A stretch of DNA of 64,000 nt from Escherichia phage vB_EcoM_JNE01: the sequence record OR670491; one strand, written 5' to 3'. Under the pieces are notes generated by a model that was not told the origin of the DNA, searched no databases, and was given only the letters and a program-made list of their open reading frames with translations. A program made the position numbers and the translations under genes. Below are positions 53,973 to 62,722 of the stretch, one piece after another (position 1 is the stretch's first letter; each line of letters starts with the position of its first letter).

Positions 53973-54151
53973 GGAACAGGTATGTATTTATATATCGCAA
54001 TTTCAAGTATTGTCTTTGTTGTTATCGTTACTGGATGGTTTGGGTATCTAATGTTAAGTACAAAATAGGTTGACTTCGGTCAGCCTTTTCTTTATACTAT
54101 AAATATAGTCATAGAGAATAAACCAATATGAAATCTATGGAGAGAAATCAA

Positions 54152-55972
54152 ATGCCAGGTCAATTTACTGATAAAAATGGTGGTAATATGGCTGGTCACT
54201 CTGACCGTTGGAGTGATGCTAACCGCCGTAAGAATAGTTATCAAGCAGGACAAGGTTCACGTGGTTCACGTAATCAAGGGACAGGTTTAGCTGGTAAGGC
54301 AAACGCAGAAGCAGGTGAAGTTAAGAGTACTGAGAACATGACTGAGCTAGAAAAGCTACGTTATGTTAACTCATTAGGTCTTCTTAACGCAACACAGAAA
54401 CAACGCCTTGCTGATATGGAACGTGCTGAGAAAGAACAAGCAGTTCCTAAAGAAGAACCAAAACCAGAAGCTCCTAAAGCAGCTAACCCTGTTAAAGAGT
54501 TATCTGATAACTTAGGTAAGATCTTTGCTAACAAACCACAGTTGATTCAGGGTATTGTCAAAGCACTACAGGCAGTTCCTAAAGAAGAACTCAAAGGTAA
54601 AGCACAAGCTGTACTTGATGCAATGAAAGGTAATAAGAGCACTGAACCTACTGAAGTATTCAGTACTATCATGCGTGCACTGGAAGGTAAACAGAAATCC
54701 TTACCACAAAAGACCGATCAAAAACCAAGCAAACCTAGTGGAAGAATGTCTGAAGACGAATTCCGTGAAGTAAATGATTACTTAGGTGCTAAGTTTGTGA
54801 ACGATATTATCAATCAAGCTAAACAATATACAGACTTAGAGAAAGCACTGTACATTATTGATATGGCAATTGAAAATGTAGATGATGTAAATGATTCTCG
54901 TGCAGTTCGTATGTCAATGTCAAGTGCTGCTGATGACCTCACATCAATGGGATTAACGCTCAAGGATGAAGACGAAAATAATGATATTGAGTTTGATGAA
55001 CACTCACACGATGATGTTAATCTGGAAAGTATTCTTAAAACTTTTGATAGTATTGGCAAAGCAGACCGTGCTAATGCACAGCAAGTCAAGAATGTACTAG
55101 CTAAACTTGAAAACCGTTTAGAAGGTAAAGACGATAAGATTCAATTAGTACATGATGCTATCAAATCAGCATTAGATTCTTATGCACCTGGTGAGAAGTC
55201 TCGATTCATCACTGCTATGAATGCTGCATTCAATACTATGAAAAAGTATGAAGCTGAACATGGTGAGAAAGTATCAAAAGATGGTTACTTAGTTCGTGAT
55301 GATGAAGAAGGGGCAGTTGACCAGAAAGATGCTGAAACATCTCATGATGATTTACCTGATACTGTTGATATGGATGGTTACATTCATCGTCCTGAAATGG
55401 GAGAGTTTGGTTCTGACAAAGAAGGATTTGAACATGCAATGGCAGTGTACAAAGCTCTCGTGAACAATCCAGATTATGCCAACCGATTTGTAGATGAGTT
55501 TGATAGTGCATGGAACAACTACAAAGACAAAGGTTATGACTTCCCTGCTGAGGCAGCATTCTTTGAACTTGGTAAACTTTTAGCTAAACATGGAATTGAT
55601 GTAGGTTCTAAAGATGGTACTGATACTGATGGCATGGAAGCAGAATTGGCTAAAGATCGTGAAATGAACGACAACTCCATTCATGAACTCCAGAAGCTAA
55701 TGATGTGGATATCCGATATTGGTAAAAAAGCTGGTGCTGATAATAAGAGTATCAACAAAAACATTAGTTGGATTAAAAGTAATGTTGGTAAAAATGCTCG
55801 TAAACTACAAAAAGCATGGACTGATTTAGTAAATGGTGCTGATGATGTTGACATTGAATCACCAGAAGCATACGAATATGCATTAACTACTCTTGATAAT
55901 TCCTTTAAAGATTACGATAACGGTAACGTAACTCATTGGGAAAAGGATATCATGAACAAATACGGTAAATGA
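54152..55972 (+). CDS. large hypothetical protein (about 606 aa), charged and low-complexity
   Basis: Track ORF trimmed to the ATG after a GGAGAG RBS; optimal codons; flanked by PeSL cassettes; shares YVNSLGLL motif with ORF 53181. Confidence 0.55.
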   Translation: MPGQFTDKNGGNMAGHSDRWSDANRRKNSYQAGQGSRGSRNQGTGLAGKANAEAGEVKSTENMTELEKLRYVNSLGLLNATQKQRLADMERAEKEQAVPKEEPKPEAPKAANPVKELSDNLGKIFANKPQLIQGIVKALQAVPKEELKGKAQAVLDAMKGNKSTEPTEVFSTIMRALEGKQKSLPQKTDQKPSKPSGRMSEDEFREVNDYLGAKFVNDIINQAKQYTDLEKALYIIDMAIENVDDVNDSRAVRMSMSSAADDLTSMGLTLKDEDENNDIEFDEHSHDDVNLESILKTFDSIGKADRANAQQVKNVLAKLENRLEGKDDKIQLVHDAIKSALDSYAPGEKSRFITAMNAAFNTMKKYEAEHGEKVSKDGYLVRDDEEGAVDQKDAETSHDDLPDTVDMDGYIHRPEMGEFGSDKEGFEHAMAVYKALVNNPDYANRFVDEFDSAWNNYKDKGYDFPAEAAFFELGKLLAKHGIDVGSKDGTDTDGMEAELAKDREMNDNSIHELQKLMMWISDIGKKAGADNKSINKNISWIKSNVGKNARKLQKAWTDLVNGADDVDIESPEAYEYALTTLDNSFKDYDNGNVTHWEKDIMNKYGK

Positions 55973-55981
55973 TAAAGAAAA

Positions 55982-56014
55982 GGGTTGACTTCGGTCAGCC
56001 CTTTTTGCTATAAT
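55982..56014 (+). promoter_or_regulatory. PeSL-like terminator-promoter cassette
   Basis: GGGTTGAC-TTCG-GTCAGCCC + TTTTT; TTGACT in stem; TGCTATAAT extended -10. Confidence 0.65.
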
Positions 56015-56042
56015 CATTTCATCAACTCAAGAGGAAACAAAA

Positions 56043-56450
56043 ATGAAAAAGACTATTTTAAGCGTAATCGGTGCAGTACTGTTCATGGTAACTTCAGTTG
56101 CTTCTGCTGCAACAGTAGAAGAGATCTTTAATAACAACCTACCTACTCAAGAAGAGATGGGTATTAAGAAGTGTGACCTTTCCCGTTACATCATTTTGGG
56201 ATCACAACTGGTTCCTGATGGTAAGGTTAAAAATCGTGTTAATCTGGTTGAAGATGGTAACACCTTCAGTTTTGAATATGGCGTAGCACCAACCTCCGGT
56301 TCTATGGATAACGTTGATGAAAACACTGGTTCCACCTGGAGTACTAACAAAGGTGATGTGTTCCATCGTATGCGTGAAGGTGGTAAACTGAAATATGTTT
56401 ACGAAAGCCCATTCATCAAACGCGTGTATATTATGACCAACTGCCATTGA
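56043..56450 (+). CDS. secreted protein
   Basis: Signal peptide (...TSVASAAT); Cys near both ends of the mature part. Confidence 0.55.
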   Translation: MKKTILSVIGAVLFMVTSVASAATVEEIFNNNLPTQEEMGIKKCDLSRYIILGSQLVPDGKVKNRVNLVEDGNTFSFEYGVAPTSGSMDNVDENTGSTWSTNKGDVFHRMREGGKLKYVYESPFIKRVYIMTNCH

Positions 56451-56501
56451 CAGATACATTTCAGTACTGTATAATACCTACATCAACCAGAGGATATGAC
56501 A

Positions 56502-56786
56502 ATGAATGTATTAGCCAATCTTGTAGGACAGATGCGTTATAACGAAATCATCACTGATGTTTCTGAACTCACTGAATCAAAAAGCTACATCCACTTAGAT
56601 GAACTAATCATCAAGTACGGAGAGATTGGTGTCAATGAGCTTATTGTTTTTATGATTGAAACTCACAAGTTGAAGTACTTTAAGCTGAACTCTGAACCGT
56701 ATGCAGAACCTAATCTTTATTACAGTTATTACTTGAAGTACAAAGATGAATTCAATAGTATTTTTAGTAAACTATTACTTGCATAG
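56502..56786 (+). CDS. hypothetical protein
   Basis: Track ORF trimmed to the ATG 9 nt after an AGAGGA RBS. Confidence 0.45.
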   Translation: MNVLANLVGQMRYNEIITDVSELTESKSYIHLDELIIKYGEIGVNELIVFMIETHKLKYFKLNSEPYAEPNLYYSYYLKYKDEFNSIFSKLLLA

Positions 56787-56795
56787 GATAACAAT

Positions 56796-57128
56796 ATGAA
56801 TTTTGAATTGATTAATAAAATATCATTCTGTTTCATGTGTTTAATACAATTGTATTTGACACTTGGATATATACTTAGATTTTTTAAGTACAAAAGTATA
56901 TATAAACGCTTTTATGATGATGCACCTATCTTCGATTTACTGTTCATCGGTAATGCGTTTTCTATAGGAGAAATTCTGGTTGATGGCATTGACCCTGCTC
57001 AACCACAGTTAGTTAGTATCTTACTTGGACTAATTGTATCATGTGTTGGTATATTCCCATTGGTGTGGTCATTCTTTCACTTCGTTGGGTGGCTTGATAA
57101 AATACGTAATAATTTACCGGAGCGATAA
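56796..57128 (+). CDS. small membrane protein, paralogue family of three
   Basis: Two TM segments; C-terminal ...RNNLPER. Confidence 0.5.
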   Translation: MNFELINKISFCFMCLIQLYLTLGYILRFFKYKSIYKRFYDDAPIFDLLFIGNAFSIGEILVDGIDPAQPQLVSILLGLIVSCVGIFPLVWSFFHFVGWLDKIRNNLPER

Positions 57129-57463
57129 TGCAAACAGTAAACACATTAAGTTTTATCATTTGTACTGTGTCTGTATTTTATATGGTACTGTGTTATGTTT
57201 TGTGGTTTTTCAAATTTGAAAGCATTTTAGAACGTGTTTATAGGCTGGACTTAGAAGATGAGATTGGTATAACAGTACTCACTGTTCTAGGTTTTGTCTG
57301 TGGTGCGTCTATCCTGTTGGATATGTACATGAAACTACCCATTGATGCCCCACATCCTCCAGTAATCACCAGTTCAATTGTAATTGGTATTGTAGGTTTC
57401 CAGGGATTGATTAGTCTGTTTTCCTCAATAGCTACATATAGAGATAAGCTACCAAAGAGGTAA
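57128..57463 (+). CDS. small membrane protein, paralogue
   Basis: Same architecture; C-terminal ...RDKLPKR. Confidence 0.5.
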   Translation: MQTVNTLSFIICTVSVFYMVLCYVLWFFKFESILERVYRLDLEDEIGITVLTVLGFVCGASILLDMYMKLPIDAPHPPVITSSIVIGIVGFQGLISLFSSIATYRDKLPKR

Positions 57464-57465
57464 AA

Positions 57466-57819
57466 ATGTCGGATAAGTACTACTTTACGGGTAAGAAATG
57501 TGAACCATACGTTTTGGATTACAAGGAGCAGGAACAACCTAAACCGAAAAAGAAAGCGAAGAAGGAAGTAGTGAAGAAACAAAAACCACTGGTTAAAGGA
57601 TTGAAACTTAAACCTTTCCAAAAACTGGACTTTGACACTTACAGAAAGATTTATTTGGATTTGACGTGTAACATTAGCTTTGATGTTAATGCGATGAACA
57701 GGAAGTATAACCTGAAGGGTAGTTTCAATTTTTATTATGACTTAAAGAATGATGATCTTGAATCTTACCATGAGTGGTATAACGTTATGAATAACCACGT
57801 CGATGACAATAACCCATAG
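57466..57819 (+). CDS. hypothetical basic protein
   Basis: 117 aa; Lys-rich segment. Confidence 0.5.
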   Translation: MSDKYYFTGKKCEPYVLDYKEQEQPKPKKKAKKEVVKKQKPLVKGLKLKPFQKLDFDTYRKIYLDLTCNISFDVNAMNRKYNLKGSFNFYYDLKNDDLESYHEWYNVMNNHVDDNNP

Positions 57820-57827
57820 GTGAATAT

Positions 57828-58178
57828 ATGATTGAAATTATCGGAACGATCAGTTTTGTGTCATGTGTATTGTTCTGCACTTACATGATAATTGGACACA
57901 TTTTGTATTTCTTCAATTACATTACTGTGTTTAAAAAATTCTACTTCGAAAAGAGTGGATTTTTGTTTTACATTTGTGATTTTTTCACATGGGTGTCAAT
58001 GGGTGCAGTTATAATGGATATTATGTTTAGTGAAGATGTTTCTAAGGTAGGGTTCGGAATGACGCTTCTACCATTTGCACTATTCGTTACCCTTGTAGCT
58101 TTGTTCTTGATAGTGTTATCAAGTAATTTTATATCAGAGAAATTAAACAAGGCTAGAGAAAACTTCCCAATGCGATAA
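57828..58178 (+). CDS. small membrane protein, paralogue
   Basis: Same architecture as 56796 and 57128; C-terminal ...RENFPMR. Confidence 0.5.
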   Translation: MIEIIGTISFVSCVLFCTYMIIGHILYFFNYITVFKKFYFEKSGFLFYICDFFTWVSMGAVIMDIMFSEDVSKVGFGMTLLPFALFVTLVALFLIVLSSNFISEKLNKARENFPMR

Positions 58179-58189
58179 AGGAGTATACT

Positions 58190-58468
58190 ATGTTCGCACT
58201 ACGTAATAAAAAGACTCACCAAATCGTGGATTATGAATGGGTTTGCTATTACAATACTGGCAGCACTGATATGATTCTGTGCCATGATGGTGAAGAACCA
58301 TTTGTAACCAAACGTCGTGAAACACTCGAAGAGATCATCGAAGAATACAATACCAATGTAAATGCTGAAAATGGTCCTTATGGCGATGGCCTACGTGTAG
58401 AGTTACCAGATGCGTATGAAACTGGTAACATGGATTCTTACGAGATTGTAGAACTGGTGGTTAAGTAA
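58190..58468 (+). CDS. hypothetical protein
   Basis: 92-aa ORF. Confidence 0.5.
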   Translation: MFALRNKKTHQIVDYEWVCYYNTGSTDMILCHDGEEPFVTKRRETLEEIIEEYNTNVNAENGPYGDGLRVELPDAYETGNMDSYEIVELVVK

Positions 58469-58845
58469 TGCGTGTAATGTATAAAGTAACTGAGCTAAAC
58501 AAGCGTCTGCTTAAGATTTCTATGTTTGAGGATAAAGAATCTCTCTATAACTTTAAACGTGCTGTAGAGGCTGCTACGCATCTACAGAAGCTTAAGGATA
58601 AAGGATGTATCATTCTTGAAAACAATTCAGTACTGGAAGGTAACTTCAGTGTAGCCTTTGATGAAGCAGAAGATGGAACACTTTCTATGCCACGTTTGGG
58701 TACTGGTGACATGACAGTGTGGATTGGCTTTACTATGGGAAACAAGAAAGGAACTGTATACGTTGATGAAGAAGAGTTGAAAGATAGCTTCAAAAACTTA
58801 TCGTACATCGAACCACAATACTCTCATAAACTAAGTTTATTTTGA
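58468..58845 (+). CDS. hypothetical protein
   Basis: 125-aa ORF. Confidence 0.5.
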   Translation: MRVMYKVTELNKRLLKISMFEDKESLYNFKRAVEAATHLQKLKDKGCIILENNSVLEGNFSVAFDEAEDGTLSMPRLGTGDMTVWIGFTMGNKKGTVYVDEEELKDSFKNLSYIEPQYSHKLSLF

Positions 58846-58921
58846 GTTGACAATAAAGTTCAGTACTGTATAATGTTTATCAAGGGGATGAACTTCTCAT
58901 CCCCACAATCGAGGAATTGTC

Positions 58922-59476
58922 ATGATTACTTTTAAGAAAACTGCTAACCACATCCATGAGATCTACATTAACGGTCACAAAGCTGGCCTTCTTCGTTTAC
59001 TCGCCCATCATCCGAATATTACCGTATCTGATAATGAACCTAAAGATTGGCGTGTATTTTTCTTTGGAAAGTACAGTGATTTTCAAGTATCAAACCTGAA
59101 GAACATTCGTTCAGTATGCACGTTAACTGAAATTAAAGAAAAGTTAACCAAAGCATTGAAAACTAATCCAGATAGTGTTCTTCCACCTGATAACTTTGTA
59201 GAGAAAGGATATGCCTTAGCTCATTTCAAAGATGGTACTATTCAATCTATCAGTACTGAATATGAATATCAATGGACTGAGTACTTCACTTATGGATCGC
59301 GTAATACATTGATGGCTTCACGTAGTAAATTGGAAGAAGTACTGACTCGTATGAATGAACGCGAGCGTCAATTTTATGACAAACCAGAAATGTGGAGTTC
59401 AACTTACATTGACCGTATTGACTATGTTATTATGACTCCAATATTTGACACTGCTTACTATGATTCTTTGAAATAA
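58922..59476 (+). CDS. hypothetical protein
   Basis: 184 aa; TTGACA-N17-TATAAT promoter about 60 nt upstream. Confidence 0.55.
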   Translation: MITFKKTANHIHEIYINGHKAGLLRLLAHHPNITVSDNEPKDWRVFFFGKYSDFQVSNLKNIRSVCTLTEIKEKLTKALKTNPDSVLPPDNFVEKGYALAHFKDGTIQSISTEYEYQWTEYFTYGSRNTLMASRSKLEEVLTRMNERERQFYDKPEMWSSTYIDRIDYVIMTPIFDTAYYDSLK

Positions 59477-59487
59477 GGATAACTTAT

Positions 59488-59664
59488 ATGAAACTACGTA
59501 CTCGTAATCGACTGATGGATGCACTGTACCATGAACAGCTTTCACTGAATGAAGTGAAGCGTCAGTTAATGTACACATATCTGTTACCCGCTCGCATTGC
59601 AAAACAACGTGCTAAAGAATTGCTGAAAGAAGCAATCGAGTACTGGGAATCTGATTCGTACTAA
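59488..59664 (+). CDS. small hypothetical protein (58 aa)
   Basis: ATG after an AAGGA RBS; below track size cutoff. Confidence 0.35.
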   Translation: MKLRTRNRLMDALYHEQLSLNEVKRQLMYTYLLPARIAKQRAKELLKEAIEYWESDSY

Positions 59665-59692
59665 TTGTCACGTTAATTAAGTGAGGCGATAA

Positions 59693-59944
59693 ATGAAAAT
59701 TTTATTAGTTCTAATACTACTAATTGTTTTACCATTTACGTTAGTATCCCCTGAACTTGCATGGAATGTGTTTGTGTACTTACTATGTACTATTGTAGTA
59801 AATGGTATCTTGTTCTTAGTTCTATTCATAAATGGAATAGGACACGGTGGAGGATGGACCAGAACTGCTGATATTGTACATAAAACCACTATGTCTTTAT
59901 TTGTAGTGTGGAATTTATTCTGGACTTGGTTTGTGTTCTTCTAA
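59693..59944 (+). CDS. small membrane protein
   Basis: 83 aa; three hydrophobic segments. Confidence 0.5.
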   Translation: MKILLVLILLIVLPFTLVSPELAWNVFVYLLCTIVVNGILFLVLFINGIGHGGGWTRTADIVHKTTMSLFVVWNLFWTWFVFF

Positions 59945-59953
59945 TTAAAAAAT

Positions 59954-60325
59954 ATGAATATAGATTTGAAAGGTGCAACCCGAACTGTCATACTCATTGG
60001 GGAATATGCTATCAAGATTCCAACCTTTAAAAGTTGGAAGCTATTCTTAACAGGGATGATAGCTAACCTCAATGAACGTTCTTGGATGCAGTACTCCAAA
60101 CGTAGTGACAGTGGTATATGTCCTACTTTGTGGTCATCTATGACTGGTCTGATAACAGTACAGAAGCGATGTAAACCAGTACATCACCGAGGATTGTTTT
60201 GGGTGGAGTTGTGTGCGTTAGCATCGAAATCAGAGTTGAGTACTGACTTCTTTTATTCAGATGCGAAGCCAGAAAACTTTGGGTATCTGAATGGTAAGTT
60301 AGTTAAACTTGATTACGGAGATTAA
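59954..60325 (+). CDS. protein-kinase-like mini-ORF (N-lobe plus catalytic-loop motifs only)
   Basis: GEYAIKIP (beta3 Lys-like), YSDAKPENF (catalytic-loop-like), C-terminal DYGD (DFG-like); 123 aa. Confidence 0.45.
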   Translation: MNIDLKGATRTVILIGEYAIKIPTFKSWKLFLTGMIANLNERSWMQYSKRSDSGICPTLWSSMTGLITVQKRCKPVHHRGLFWVELCALASKSELSTDFFYSDAKPENFGYLNGKLVKLDYGD

Positions 60326-60326
60326 T

Positions 60327-60596
60327 ATGTACGCATTATATAATAAAGAAAAGAAACGATTCGCTAAGGTTGAAATTTTTATTGATACATTTGATATGTT
60401 AGAGTATTGTATCATCACTGATACTTATGAAGCATTGTATTACGTTCTTGATGACGTATCAGTACTGCAACGATTACTTGAGCGTTCAAAAAGTACATGC
60501 CAGGGTATCCATGATGGTTCATCTTATGAAACACCTGATTGTCCACACGGTCAACTCGATGGGTATGAGATTGTTAAGTTGGGAATTATTGAGTAA
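60327..60596 (+). CDS. hypothetical protein
   Basis: Track ORF trimmed to the ATG after a GGAG RBS, 2 nt after the kinase-like stop. Confidence 0.45.
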   Translation: MYALYNKEKKRFAKVEIFIDTFDMLEYCIITDTYEALYYVLDDVSVLQRLLERSKSTCQGIHDGSSYETPDCPHGQLDGYEIVKLGIIE

Positions 60597-60661
60597 AAGG
60601 TATTGACACAGTTCCCATTTAACAGTATTATGTATGTACACCAACTAATGAGGAATCTGAA

Positions 60662-61021
60662 ATGGCATCTTTAACTGAAATCACTGAACTTAATCCACTG
60701 GCAATTAGTACTGTTCAACGCACCAAGACGTTTTACTTCCGTCCAGCAGAAGGTTGGAAGCGTGGCGTGAATGGTGATTATCGTGAACTGGAAGATAATC
60801 TCGTGGGACGTGTTAATTCAGAACTTAATGTTTATGAAGGTGTTAAGGTTGTACGTTCACATTCTCGTTATTTTGAATACTACATTGAGTCTTCATCAGT
60901 GAATGAAAACAGTTCATTTTCTGTTGACAATACTGATACACTGCGTAATGCAGTATCTATTCTATGTAACATTGCAGAAGAGATGGGATTAACTATCGTA
61001 ACGATTGGTGAGTTAGCATGA
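60662..61021 (+). CDS. hypothetical protein
   Basis: 119-aa ORF. Confidence 0.5.
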   Translation: MASLTEITELNPLAISTVQRTKTFYFRPAEGWKRGVNGDYRELEDNLVGRVNSELNVYEGVKVVRSHSRYFEYYIESSSVNENSSFSVDNTDTLRNAVSILCNIAEEMGLTIVTIGELA

Positions 61022-61158
61022 TTAAAACTTTTATTCTTACAATGGTATTTGGTTCTTATGGTGCTGGTGTGCACCAGTAACTAAGAAATAAAAAAAGGTT
61101 GACAGTAGTCATCCCTTTCTATATAATTAATACATCTTAAGCGAACGAGGATTTACAA

Positions 61159-61575
61159 ATGAATGCAACTCTGAATGGTAAAAATATCAACGTAGCTACT
61201 ATTGCTGCAATTCTGCTAAACAATCGTGAAGTAACTATTGACTTACCACTTACAACTAAAACTGGTATTCTCATTACACGAAATGAATCACACTTCGTTG
61301 GTTACAAAAAGCAAGATGTTATTTCCGTTTGTTTTTATGAATCAGACGGCATCGACGACGAAGTAACTAGTACTGAATACTTCAATACCGACATGATTGA
61401 ATCAGCATCTAAAGCTGCACTTGAGCGTCATGCAAGTGAAGATCCAACTGAAGCATCCAACTTCAGTGTTTCATTTGAAAACACTTTCATCAAAATTGAT
61501 GAAAATGTTATTGATTTTGAAATGGCTGATATCAGTCCGATGGATCTCAATGGCCTTCCAACTGTTAAAGGATAA
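61159..61575 (+). CDS. hypothetical protein
   Basis: 138-aa ORF. Confidence 0.5.
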   Translation: MNATLNGKNINVATIAAILLNNREVTIDLPLTTKTGILITRNESHFVGYKKQDVISVCFYESDGIDDEVTSTEYFNTDMIESASKAALERHASEDPTEASNFSVSFENTFIKIDENVIDFEMADISPMDLNGLPTVKG

Positions 61576-61580
61576 TACAA

Positions 61581-62000
61581 ATGAAATGTCCAATCTGTGA
61601 AAAACAATTGAATGTTGGATCAATTCCTTTCCTTTGGATGGATCGCTACGGTGATAAATGCGTTGCCAGGACTGAATGCTGTGGTCATGCAGTAACAATG
61701 CGTAAGGTTTCAACCTATACAGCAGACCCGTATGTTGGTGAGCGAAGCGAAGATGATTGGGGTACAGAGTTTACTCCTTTGAAGTCTAAAATCCAAGCAC
61801 AAGTAAACGATGAACTTTATGATTCAGTACTGATGCACTTGAAGAACAACGAACTGAGAGAAGCACTTGATGTTATTCGTTCTATTAAGAACCCTTTAAC
61901 AGCAGCTTGGGTGACTCATCAAGTACTGGAATATTTGGATACACCTAGCCAAAAACAAACGCGTAACTGGCTCATTAACGCATTGTATAGTGGAGTATAA
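61581..62000 (+). CDS. hypothetical protein with CxxC...CC motif
   Basis: 139 aa; N-terminal CPICEK...TECCGH. Confidence 0.5.
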   Translation: MKCPICEKQLNVGSIPFLWMDRYGDKCVARTECCGHAVTMRKVSTYTADPYVGERSEDDWGTEFTPLKSKIQAQVNDELYDSVLMHLKNNELREALDVIRSIKNPLTAAWVTHQVLEYLDTPSQKQTRNWLINALYSGV

Positions 62001-62145
62001 GAGTAGTTGTAATCGAAGCTGTAATTTATATGTTGAGGTAGTTCAAATGAAAGTTATGTTTGTATACAACGAATTTGAAGAATGCAAAGGTTGTGGTTTG
62101 CCGAACTATCTTTGTTCCTGTCATGGTGAGTATTTCTGAAATAAA

Positions 62146-62178
62146 GGGTTGACTTCGGTCAGCCCTTTTTGCTATAAT
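62146..62178 (+). promoter_or_regulatory. PeSL-like terminator-promoter cassette upstream of denV
   Basis: GGGTTGAC-TTCG-GTCAGCCC + TTTTT; TTGACT -35; TGCTATAAT. Confidence 0.65.
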
Positions 62179-62206
62179 ACTTTCATCAAGACGAGAGGAT
62201 GAAAAC

Positions 62207-62722
62207 ATGACACGCATTAACTTAGTACACGTTAAAGAACTTGCTGACCAACATCTGATGGCTGAATACCGTGAACTCCCACGCGTGTTTGGTGCTGTAC
62301 AAAAACATGTTCAAGCACGTAAACGTGTCCGTGATTTCAAAATTAACAGTACTTACCTGTTAGGTTCAGGTCATGTAACATTCTTCTACGACAAGTTACT
62401 TTACTTACAGAAGCGACATATTGATATTGTCAACGAATGTTTGCGTCGTGGTATGAAGATTCAAAACACTGAAGTAAACGATATCAGTGGGTTCCCTGCT
62501 GAGTTTTGTAATGATTACGTACCATCGGAGTCAGAGATTAAAACATCGCGTGAGCGTTTGATTGAGAAGCTCCAGATGAAGCCTAAGTGGTATAAATTTA
62601 CTGATGTTGAATGTCCACAGTACGTTAAAGATATGCAGAACGTAAGTAGTAAGATCGAATCTAGTACTGATATGTTCGACGAAATTGAAGAACAAATCAA
62701 AGATGAAATGAATAATTATTAA
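62207..62722 (+). CDS. denV: endonuclease V (pyrimidine-dimer DNA glycosylase/AP lyase), T4 DenV homologue
   Basis: [30 protein letters not shown]...KRVRDFKI...[10 protein letters not shown] matches T4 endonuclease V nearly residue for residue over the N-terminal 70 aa. Confidence 0.9.

Follow-up and report, generated by a model that had tools for sequence, protein, structure and literature searches.

The 64,000-nucleotide stretch of the Escherichia phage vB_EcoM_JNE01 genome analyzed here (OR670491; hereafter the window) carries a 123-codon open reading frame (ORF) whose product combines VAIK-, catalytic-loop- and DFG-like motifs, exactly as the original prediction described. The first of these lies in GEYAIKIP (residues 16–23, with the K21 codon at 60014–60016) and the second in YSDAKPENF (residues 101–109); E41 falls within the segment ANLNE, and the protein ends in DYGD, followed by a TAA stop at 60323–60325. 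We refer to this gene as the mini-kinase. Its elements and those of the surrounding region are as follows.

58847..58874, + strand: σ70 promoter, TTGACA-16-TATAAT, 12/12 consensus positions, in an intergenic gap at the head of a five-ORF unit (58922–60596)
59954..60325, + strand: mini-kinase gene, 123 aa plus stop; predicted protein-kinase-like fold with Hanks subdomains I–VII only; phrog_4301
59972..59983, + strand: glycine-loop equivalent G7-A-T9-R10, between β1 and β2 (from alignments; strands from models)
60005..60022, + strand: β3 strand Y-A-I-K21-I-P with the VAIK-type Lys; K21 in 157/157 ungapped representatives
60074..60076, + strand: αC-helix Glu E41 (helix 28–43, from models), presumed salt-bridge partner of K21; E41 in 158/158 representatives
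60260..60277, + strand: catalytic loop D103-A-K105-P-E-N108, subdomain VIb; in register with HSDLKPAN of TTK
60311..60319, + strand: DFG-equivalent D120-Y-G122, metal binding, with one residue left before the stop; D120 in 155/155 representatives
60327..60596, + strand: downstream ORF, 89 aa, phrog_8563; GGAG at 60317–60320; no kinase or Pfam match
60603..60631, + strand: σ70-like promoter, 11/12, marking the end of the five-ORF unit
61099–61127, + strand: σ70 consensus promoter, 12/12, in an intergenic gap
62149–62178, + strand: σ70-like promoter, 11/12, in an intergenic gap
62207–62722: endonuclease V (denV)

Translated in all six frames, the window contains a single instance of the pattern [AVIL][AVILM]K...E...D.K..N(10-14)D[FYWLM]G, and none appeared in 200 trinucleotide shuffles; its catalytic-loop and DFG part alone was found in one of 200 shuffles. 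The motifs are therefore real and beyond chance, a conclusion confirmed above all by their conservation across the family, which is decisive. The codons for PTFKSWK also contain a perfect hairpin with a 7-bp stem, TTCCAAC-CTTTAAAA-GTTGGAA (60018–60039), that was flagged by a terminator scan; as no clean T-run forms its tail, the hairpin is probably there by chance.

The mini-kinase is the fourth of the five ORFs in 58922–60596, the other four belonging to PHROGs without known function. Promoter-like sites are not more numerous overall than expected by chance; the perfect ones are placed at gene starts. Judged from the position of its promoter and the perfect consensus match, the unit looks like an early-type one driven by host RNA polymerase (RNAP), and the four promoters in + strand gaps suggest several short early units in succession, each transcribed by host RNAP. 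Upstream of the mini-kinase runs a set of three paralogous predicted membrane proteins of ~110–116 aa (56796–57128, 57128–57463 and 57828–58178), which share a similar basic tail, "...LP(E/K)R / FPMR"; a homologous pair in phage 121Q clusters with them.

The phage is a jumbo coliphage of the 121Q/PBECO4-like type. Escherichia jumbo phages of the genus Asteriusvirus (A4, 121Q, PBECO4, phAPEC6 and G17) encode "hypothetical proteins" that are 93–96% identical to the mini-kinase, the 121Q counterpart being gene 215 (gp215). In 121Q, endonuclease V lies 67 nt past the phrog_8563 ORF (121Q segment 4644–4710). Relative to that phage, 60597–62206 of the window is a ~1.6-kb insertion with three to four extra ORFs (60662–61021, phrog_32140; 61159–61575; 61581–62000; possibly 61990–62139), and the promoters at 60603 and 61099 fall inside it.

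Structure prediction for the mini-kinase returned a kinase fold. AlphaFold2 gave a confident model with a pLDDT of 88.3 and a pTM of 0.78 from 14 sequences, and another, likewise confident and of the same topology, from 108 sequences (pLDDT 93.4, pTM 0.82). The modeled strands are β1 (residues 2–4), β2 (10–15), β3 (18–23), β4 (58–61), β5 (68–71), β7 (109–112) and β8 (115–118), and the helices are αC (28–43), αE (79–92) and a short helix at 97–101. On these models, the predicted structure is a protein-kinase fold comprising Hanks subdomains I–VII and nothing else: a whole N-lobe (β1–β5 and αC), then αE, the catalytic loop, β7–β8 and the DFG-type motif, with no activation segment and no αF–αI. 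Three structural features of the PKL/ePK superfamily are represented, namely an N-lobe built of a five-stranded antiparallel sheet plus αC with a β3 Lys/αC Glu pair, an acid-x-Lys-x-x-Asn loop, and a DFG-type Asp after β8. What a canonical Hanks domain has and this model lacks is subdomains VIII–XI (activation segment/APE, αF, αG–αI). Foldseek searches with the model found Hanks kinases such as TTK/Mps1 and PknB as the best structural matches (TTK, E = 6e-4), and its neighbors in BFVD are phage proteins of 117–273 aa followed by annotated viral Ser/Thr kinases.

No kinase family matched the ORF in a Pfam scan at E values up to 10, and scans against NCBIfam and PADLOC returned no match. Among 108 family members, none matched Pkinase, RIO1, Kdo or APH in Pfam, with scattered chance matches only. 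Searches of PDB sequences with phmmer and with the family profile yielded nothing significant; the best, a sub-threshold profile match to human TTK (E = 0.71), aligns D-x-K-P-x-N-F...(I/L)-D-[FY]-G in register and with identical N108-to-D120 spacing. One family member has a weak match to the ABC1-kinase family of Pfam (E = 4e-4) over the same region as the TTK alignment. The original prediction had named three outcomes that would count against it: no kinase-family HMM hit (Pkinase, RIO, Kdo, APH), an unrelated fold, and loss of the motifs in homologues. Only the first came about; the predicted fold is that of a kinase, and in homologues the three motifs persist, as does the αC Glu. Its suggestion of a minimal kinase-like protein is supported by both of these results. 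The narrower suggestion of a RIO- or Kdo-like protein is not borne out, given the lack of an HMM match and a D-x-K-P-E-N loop of the Ser/Thr ePK type.

The mini-kinase matches phrog_4301 (E = 6.7e-43; residues 2–122 against profile columns 40–167 of 225), a PHROG without functional annotation whose profile also spans variable extensions at both termini that the window protein lacks. A word-indexed search found 14 homologues, 13 of them full length (alignment A1), and all 13 are 118–127 aa long and end one residue past DYG. An exhaustive profile search of 1.84 billion representatives yielded 1208 clusters (at 50% identity) with E ≤ 1e-3, 644 of them with E ≤ 1e-10. Nearly all of the 1208 are 110–135 aa long, with a match that reaches the last profile position and an end 0–3 residues past DYG. 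In an HMM alignment of 158 retrieved representatives (sharing at most ~50% mutual identity) together with the window protein, at most three residues follow DYG in 131 of the 159 sequences. A Pfam scan of the rare longer members for fused domains found none recognizable; the proteins of Ralstonia phage RP12 (209 aa) and Klebsiella phage Miami (139 aa) consist of the same core with short, non-conserved tails in which neither a Pfam domain nor a C-lobe motif was found. A much longer candidate, the 1073-aa metagenomic protein P0035 (E = 1e-26 against the family profile), was rejected as a repeat artifact made up of ~16 tandem ~66-aa repeats, and shows that summed multi-domain scores can mislead. 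The 123-aa protein is intact by itself and belongs to a large family of phage proteins that retain the ATP-binding half and every catalytic motif of a protein kinase and whose natural end comes right after the DFG-type motif.

Viewed locally, the region invites the idea of a broken gene: the stop comes one residue past DYG, and the next ORF begins 1 nt on in another frame. The original prediction raised a split or frameshifted kinase or a programmed frameshift, and it looked to homologues for a fused full-length version; in the programmed case, the kinase would be completed by ORF 60327–60596. No such fusion was found, longer members having the domain-less tails already described. The same ~120-aa length and stop recur in hundreds of diverged homologues, across more than 1000 diverged clusters, and in every other lineage the genes downstream of the mini-kinase differ. 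The phrog_8563 ORF is itself lineage restricted, with 33 records, all from Asteriusvirus-type coliphages or Salmonella relatives, against 104 for the kinase-like ORF; it gives no kinase signal, and it has a paralogue ~2 kb upstream (58190–58468) that adjoins no kinase-like gene. Its distribution and paralogy exclude this ORF as a C-lobe. No slippery run is present at the junction, GAT TAA T ATG. We regard the broken-gene reading as effectively refuted, with next to no probability left to a mutational split or to programmed frameshifting. The downstream ATG (60327) lies one base past the mini-kinase stop in a different frame, and its GGAG falls inside the DYG codons of the mini-kinase, an arrangement that suggests translational coupling of the downstream ORF to the mini-kinase. 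Both phrog_8563 ORFs share the C-terminal sequence D-[GS]-Y-E-I-V-[KE]-L.

Sequence conservation within the family points to a selected active site. R10, K21, E41 and D120 are invariant wherever covered among the 158 representatives, and K21 is also invariant in a broad alignment, A2. G7 is present in 153 of 155 representatives and T/S9 is nearly invariant; positions conserved in at least 90% are G7, V12, P23, G34, N38, G65, G110 and Y121. The catalytic-loop acid and Lys are retained in nearly all of these diverged sequences. The loop takes either of two coupled forms, D-x-K-x-x-N (80 sequences) and E-x-K-x-x-S (47), with mixed cases numbering only 6, and it switches state ~9 times on a rough NJ tree. 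In one third of the family, Glu replaces the catalytic Asp, an unusual substitution for an active ePK. In PKA, the paired residues, D166 and N171, adjoin each other at the γ-phosphate/Mg site. We take the coupled exchange of D/N and E/S, which would keep the catalytic geometry and is not expected from decay, to indicate selection on the loop as a probable functional site.

Judged by the hosts of the phages that carry it, the family extends over Escherichia, Salmonella, Klebsiella, Erwinia, Serratia, Aeromonas, Pseudomonas, Ralstonia and Rhizobium, and one member comes from a contig assigned to a Bacteroidales MAG. The carriers include jumbo, T-even (JS10, vB_Eco_EL, PaulHMueller), rV5-like, FelixO1-like and N4-like phages as well as small siphoviruses. 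Copies of at least 70% identity are found in three unrelated coliphage families, represented by the N4-like phi G17, the T-even vB_Eco_EL and the rV5-like A5-4. This pattern points to horizontal exchange within host range and indicates that transfer among phages sharing E. coli as a host was probably recent. A Salmonella copy resides in a lambdoid prophage between an Rz-type lysis gene and nu1, the classical moron slot. A scan of genome contigs with one peptide pattern found no relative, and presence in cellular genomes rests on this prophage example.

The gene sits in arrays of small, unannotated accessory genes without a consistent functional theme. Across 21 independent locus lineages, no protein family encoded within 3 kb is common to more than two, and the mini-kinase itself clusters in 19 of the 21 by the same BLASTP criterion. 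The mini-kinase stands alone, with no conserved neighbor across these lineages. Individual neighborhoods are varied. In the T-even phage JS10, RNA ligase 2 (RnlB) lies immediately downstream (JS10 segment 2977–4354), in a single lineage; the RNA-repair lead that this adjacency offered was abandoned when it did not recur in other lineages. A tRNA cluster adjoins the gene in a single lineage, a metagenomic phage (segments 3159–3524 and 8933–9295) has a gene of the Tad2-like (anti-Thoeris sponge) family ~1.5 kb upstream, and DUF4326 genes lie nearby in two unrelated phages (in one at segment 477–929). None of these four settings recurs across lineages (at most 2 of 21).

The mini-kinase shares with Hanks Ser/Thr kinases such as TTK/Mps1 and PknB a common N-lobe architecture, the β3 Lys, the αC Glu, a D-x-K-P-x-N loop and a DFG-type Asp, and its N-to-D spacing equals that of TTK. 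It differs from Hanks kinases in its length (~120 versus ~260 aa), in having neither αD nor subdomains VIII–XI, in its single-Gly G-x-T-R loop with an invariant Arg, and in falling below every sequence-model threshold. The reduced bacterial effector kinases OspG/NleH, SteC and HopBF1 are 170–220-aa domains that keep αF (and, in SteC, αG), whereas the mini-kinase family stops earlier and has no αF-containing C-lobe; the similarity to them is structural only, with no sequence relationship. ArkI/Ark1 (AQ578 family) and Bud32/RIO are, like the mini-kinase, small ePK-superfamily proteins without some C-lobe subdomains. RIO and Bud32 have loops of their own, and the mini-kinase matches neither the HMMs nor the loops of the RIO, Bud32 and Kdo groups. 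ArkI, a 216-aa protein with HGQ and DFE motifs, illustrates that such folds can act on RNA (PMC9095486).

T7 gp0.7 (T7K), which is phage encoded, early and of kinase fold, offers a functional analogy to the mini-kinase in its proposed host-takeover or anti-defense role (PMC13645617). The two families differ: T7K has a DPV motif rather than DFG, and a fuller domain (PMC13645617), whereas the mini-kinase has DYG. We propose that the mini-kinase may be functionally like T7 gp0.7 and evolutionarily separate from it. A further candidate relative, gp205 of 121Q (224 aa, annotated "protein kinase"), was discarded after BLASTP found no significant similarity to the mini-kinase (E = 2.6); from its TDPL motif and annotation, we take gp205 to be a putative jumbo-phage kinase of the T7K type. 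Its gene (121Q segment 183–857) lies 3.8 kb upstream of the mini-kinase in 121Q. No trace of a gp205-type gene was found in the window, where the ~54000–58500 region was compared (best tblastn E = 3.6); whether this second kinase is present varies among close relatives within Asteriusvirus.

Computation shows the fold, the natural stop after DYG, the invariance of the ATP/Mg residues and the stand-alone nature of the gene. The reading that we favor, on a modest balance of probability, is that the mini-kinase is an autonomous miniature enzyme that transfers phosphate from ATP to a host target and probably needs a partner or self-association. In this proposed mechanism, the protein would be synthesized early from a host-RNAP promoter; Mg-ATP would be held between K21/E41, the G-x-T-R loop and D120, and the γ-phosphate would be transferred by D103/K105/N108. 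The outcome would be modification of a host target, most probably at a Ser/Thr of a protein, for takeover or counter-defense; a protein acceptor is the first choice because the D-x-K-P-E-N loop is a Ser/Thr protein-kinase signature. With no substrate-binding lobe of its own, the protein would probably have its acceptor site completed in trans by the target, a partner protein or self-association; OspG, as noted in a study of SteC, requires E2~Ub (PMC13395416).

Against an active enzyme stand the absence of any significant Pfam, NCBIfam or PDB sequence model and the single Gly of the glycine loop. The main caveat on activity comes from published work: the smallest characterized kinases keep αF. 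The minimal active domain of SteC is reported to be 210–429 with its reduced C-lobe essential, and SteC 202–375, a fragment of extent similar to the mini-kinase that ends shortly past the DFG-equivalent, is reported to be catalytically inactive (PMC13395416). TkArkI likewise retains subdomains IX and XI (PMC9095486).

The reported inactivity of that SteC fragment (PMC13395416), along with the absence from the mini-kinase models of the αF–αI scaffold that organizes an active ePK core, lends weight to a different account, in which the protein is a non-catalytic nucleotide-binding or pseudokinase-like module: a sensor, a nucleotide-signal sponge, or a decoy or inhibitor docking on a host protein. 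D103E and N108S in one third of members point the same way, as does the one relative that, within an array of accessory genes, has a Tad2-like sponge gene ~1.5 kb away. In a typical pseudokinase, the Lys or at least one residue of the catalytic loop or the DFG motif has been lost; in the mini-kinase family, K21, E41 and D120 are invariant, the loop acid and Lys persist in nearly all of the 158 representatives, and the coupled change from D/N to E/S fits a kept catalytic geometry, not decay. We consider a non-catalytic module unlikely on this evidence, although it is the rival that we weigh most heavily. Less probable again is an active kinase with a non-protein acceptor, such as the ends or riboses of RNA or DNA, or a small molecule, for instance a metabolite or a signaling nucleotide. 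The RnlB and tRNA adjacencies are not recurrent across the 21 lineages, and the catalytic loops of APH, RIO and ArkI differ from D-x-K-P-E-N. The latter is a signature of Ser/Thr protein kinases, ArkI having HGQ (PMC9095486), and a protein that ends at DYG has no basic surface or RNA-binding helix like α7 of ArkI. Returning to the phosphotransferase that we favor, its boldest form would make the mini-kinase the smallest autonomous protein kinase domain in nature (~120 aa, subdomains I–VII), competent without αF–αI, serving as an early takeover or anti-defense effector in many phage lineages and having its substrate site completed in trans; we advance this tentatively, as a possibility short of even likelihood.

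The kinase resemblance has already been touched by annotation pipelines: automated "protein kinase domain" labels exist for Erwinia phage pEa_SNUABM_5 and in the UniProt name of the RP12 protein. A literature search found no description of the mini-kinase family, of phrog_4301 or of a DFG-terminated architecture. A study of the T7 kinase that surveyed the BASEL phages for kinases reported only T7K homologues and an unrelated P1 kinase (PMC13645617); at least one phage of that collection carries a mini-kinase. On its predicted fold, this would be the smallest kinase-like domain that we found described. If the family proves active, it would define how small the kinase fold can be, and ATP binding and phosphotransfer would be possible without an αF-centered C-lobe, which bears on models of core assembly around αF-anchored spines and on kinase origins. 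An active family would also constitute a second, widespread and so far unrecognized class of phage kinase beside T7 gp0.7, spanning T-even, rV5-like, FelixO1-like, N4-like, jumbo and lambdoid phages. Protein engineering could, in addition, make use of an ATP-binding scaffold of 120 aa. If inactive, the mini-kinase would still represent a conserved, mobile nucleotide-binding module in the conflict between phages and their hosts.
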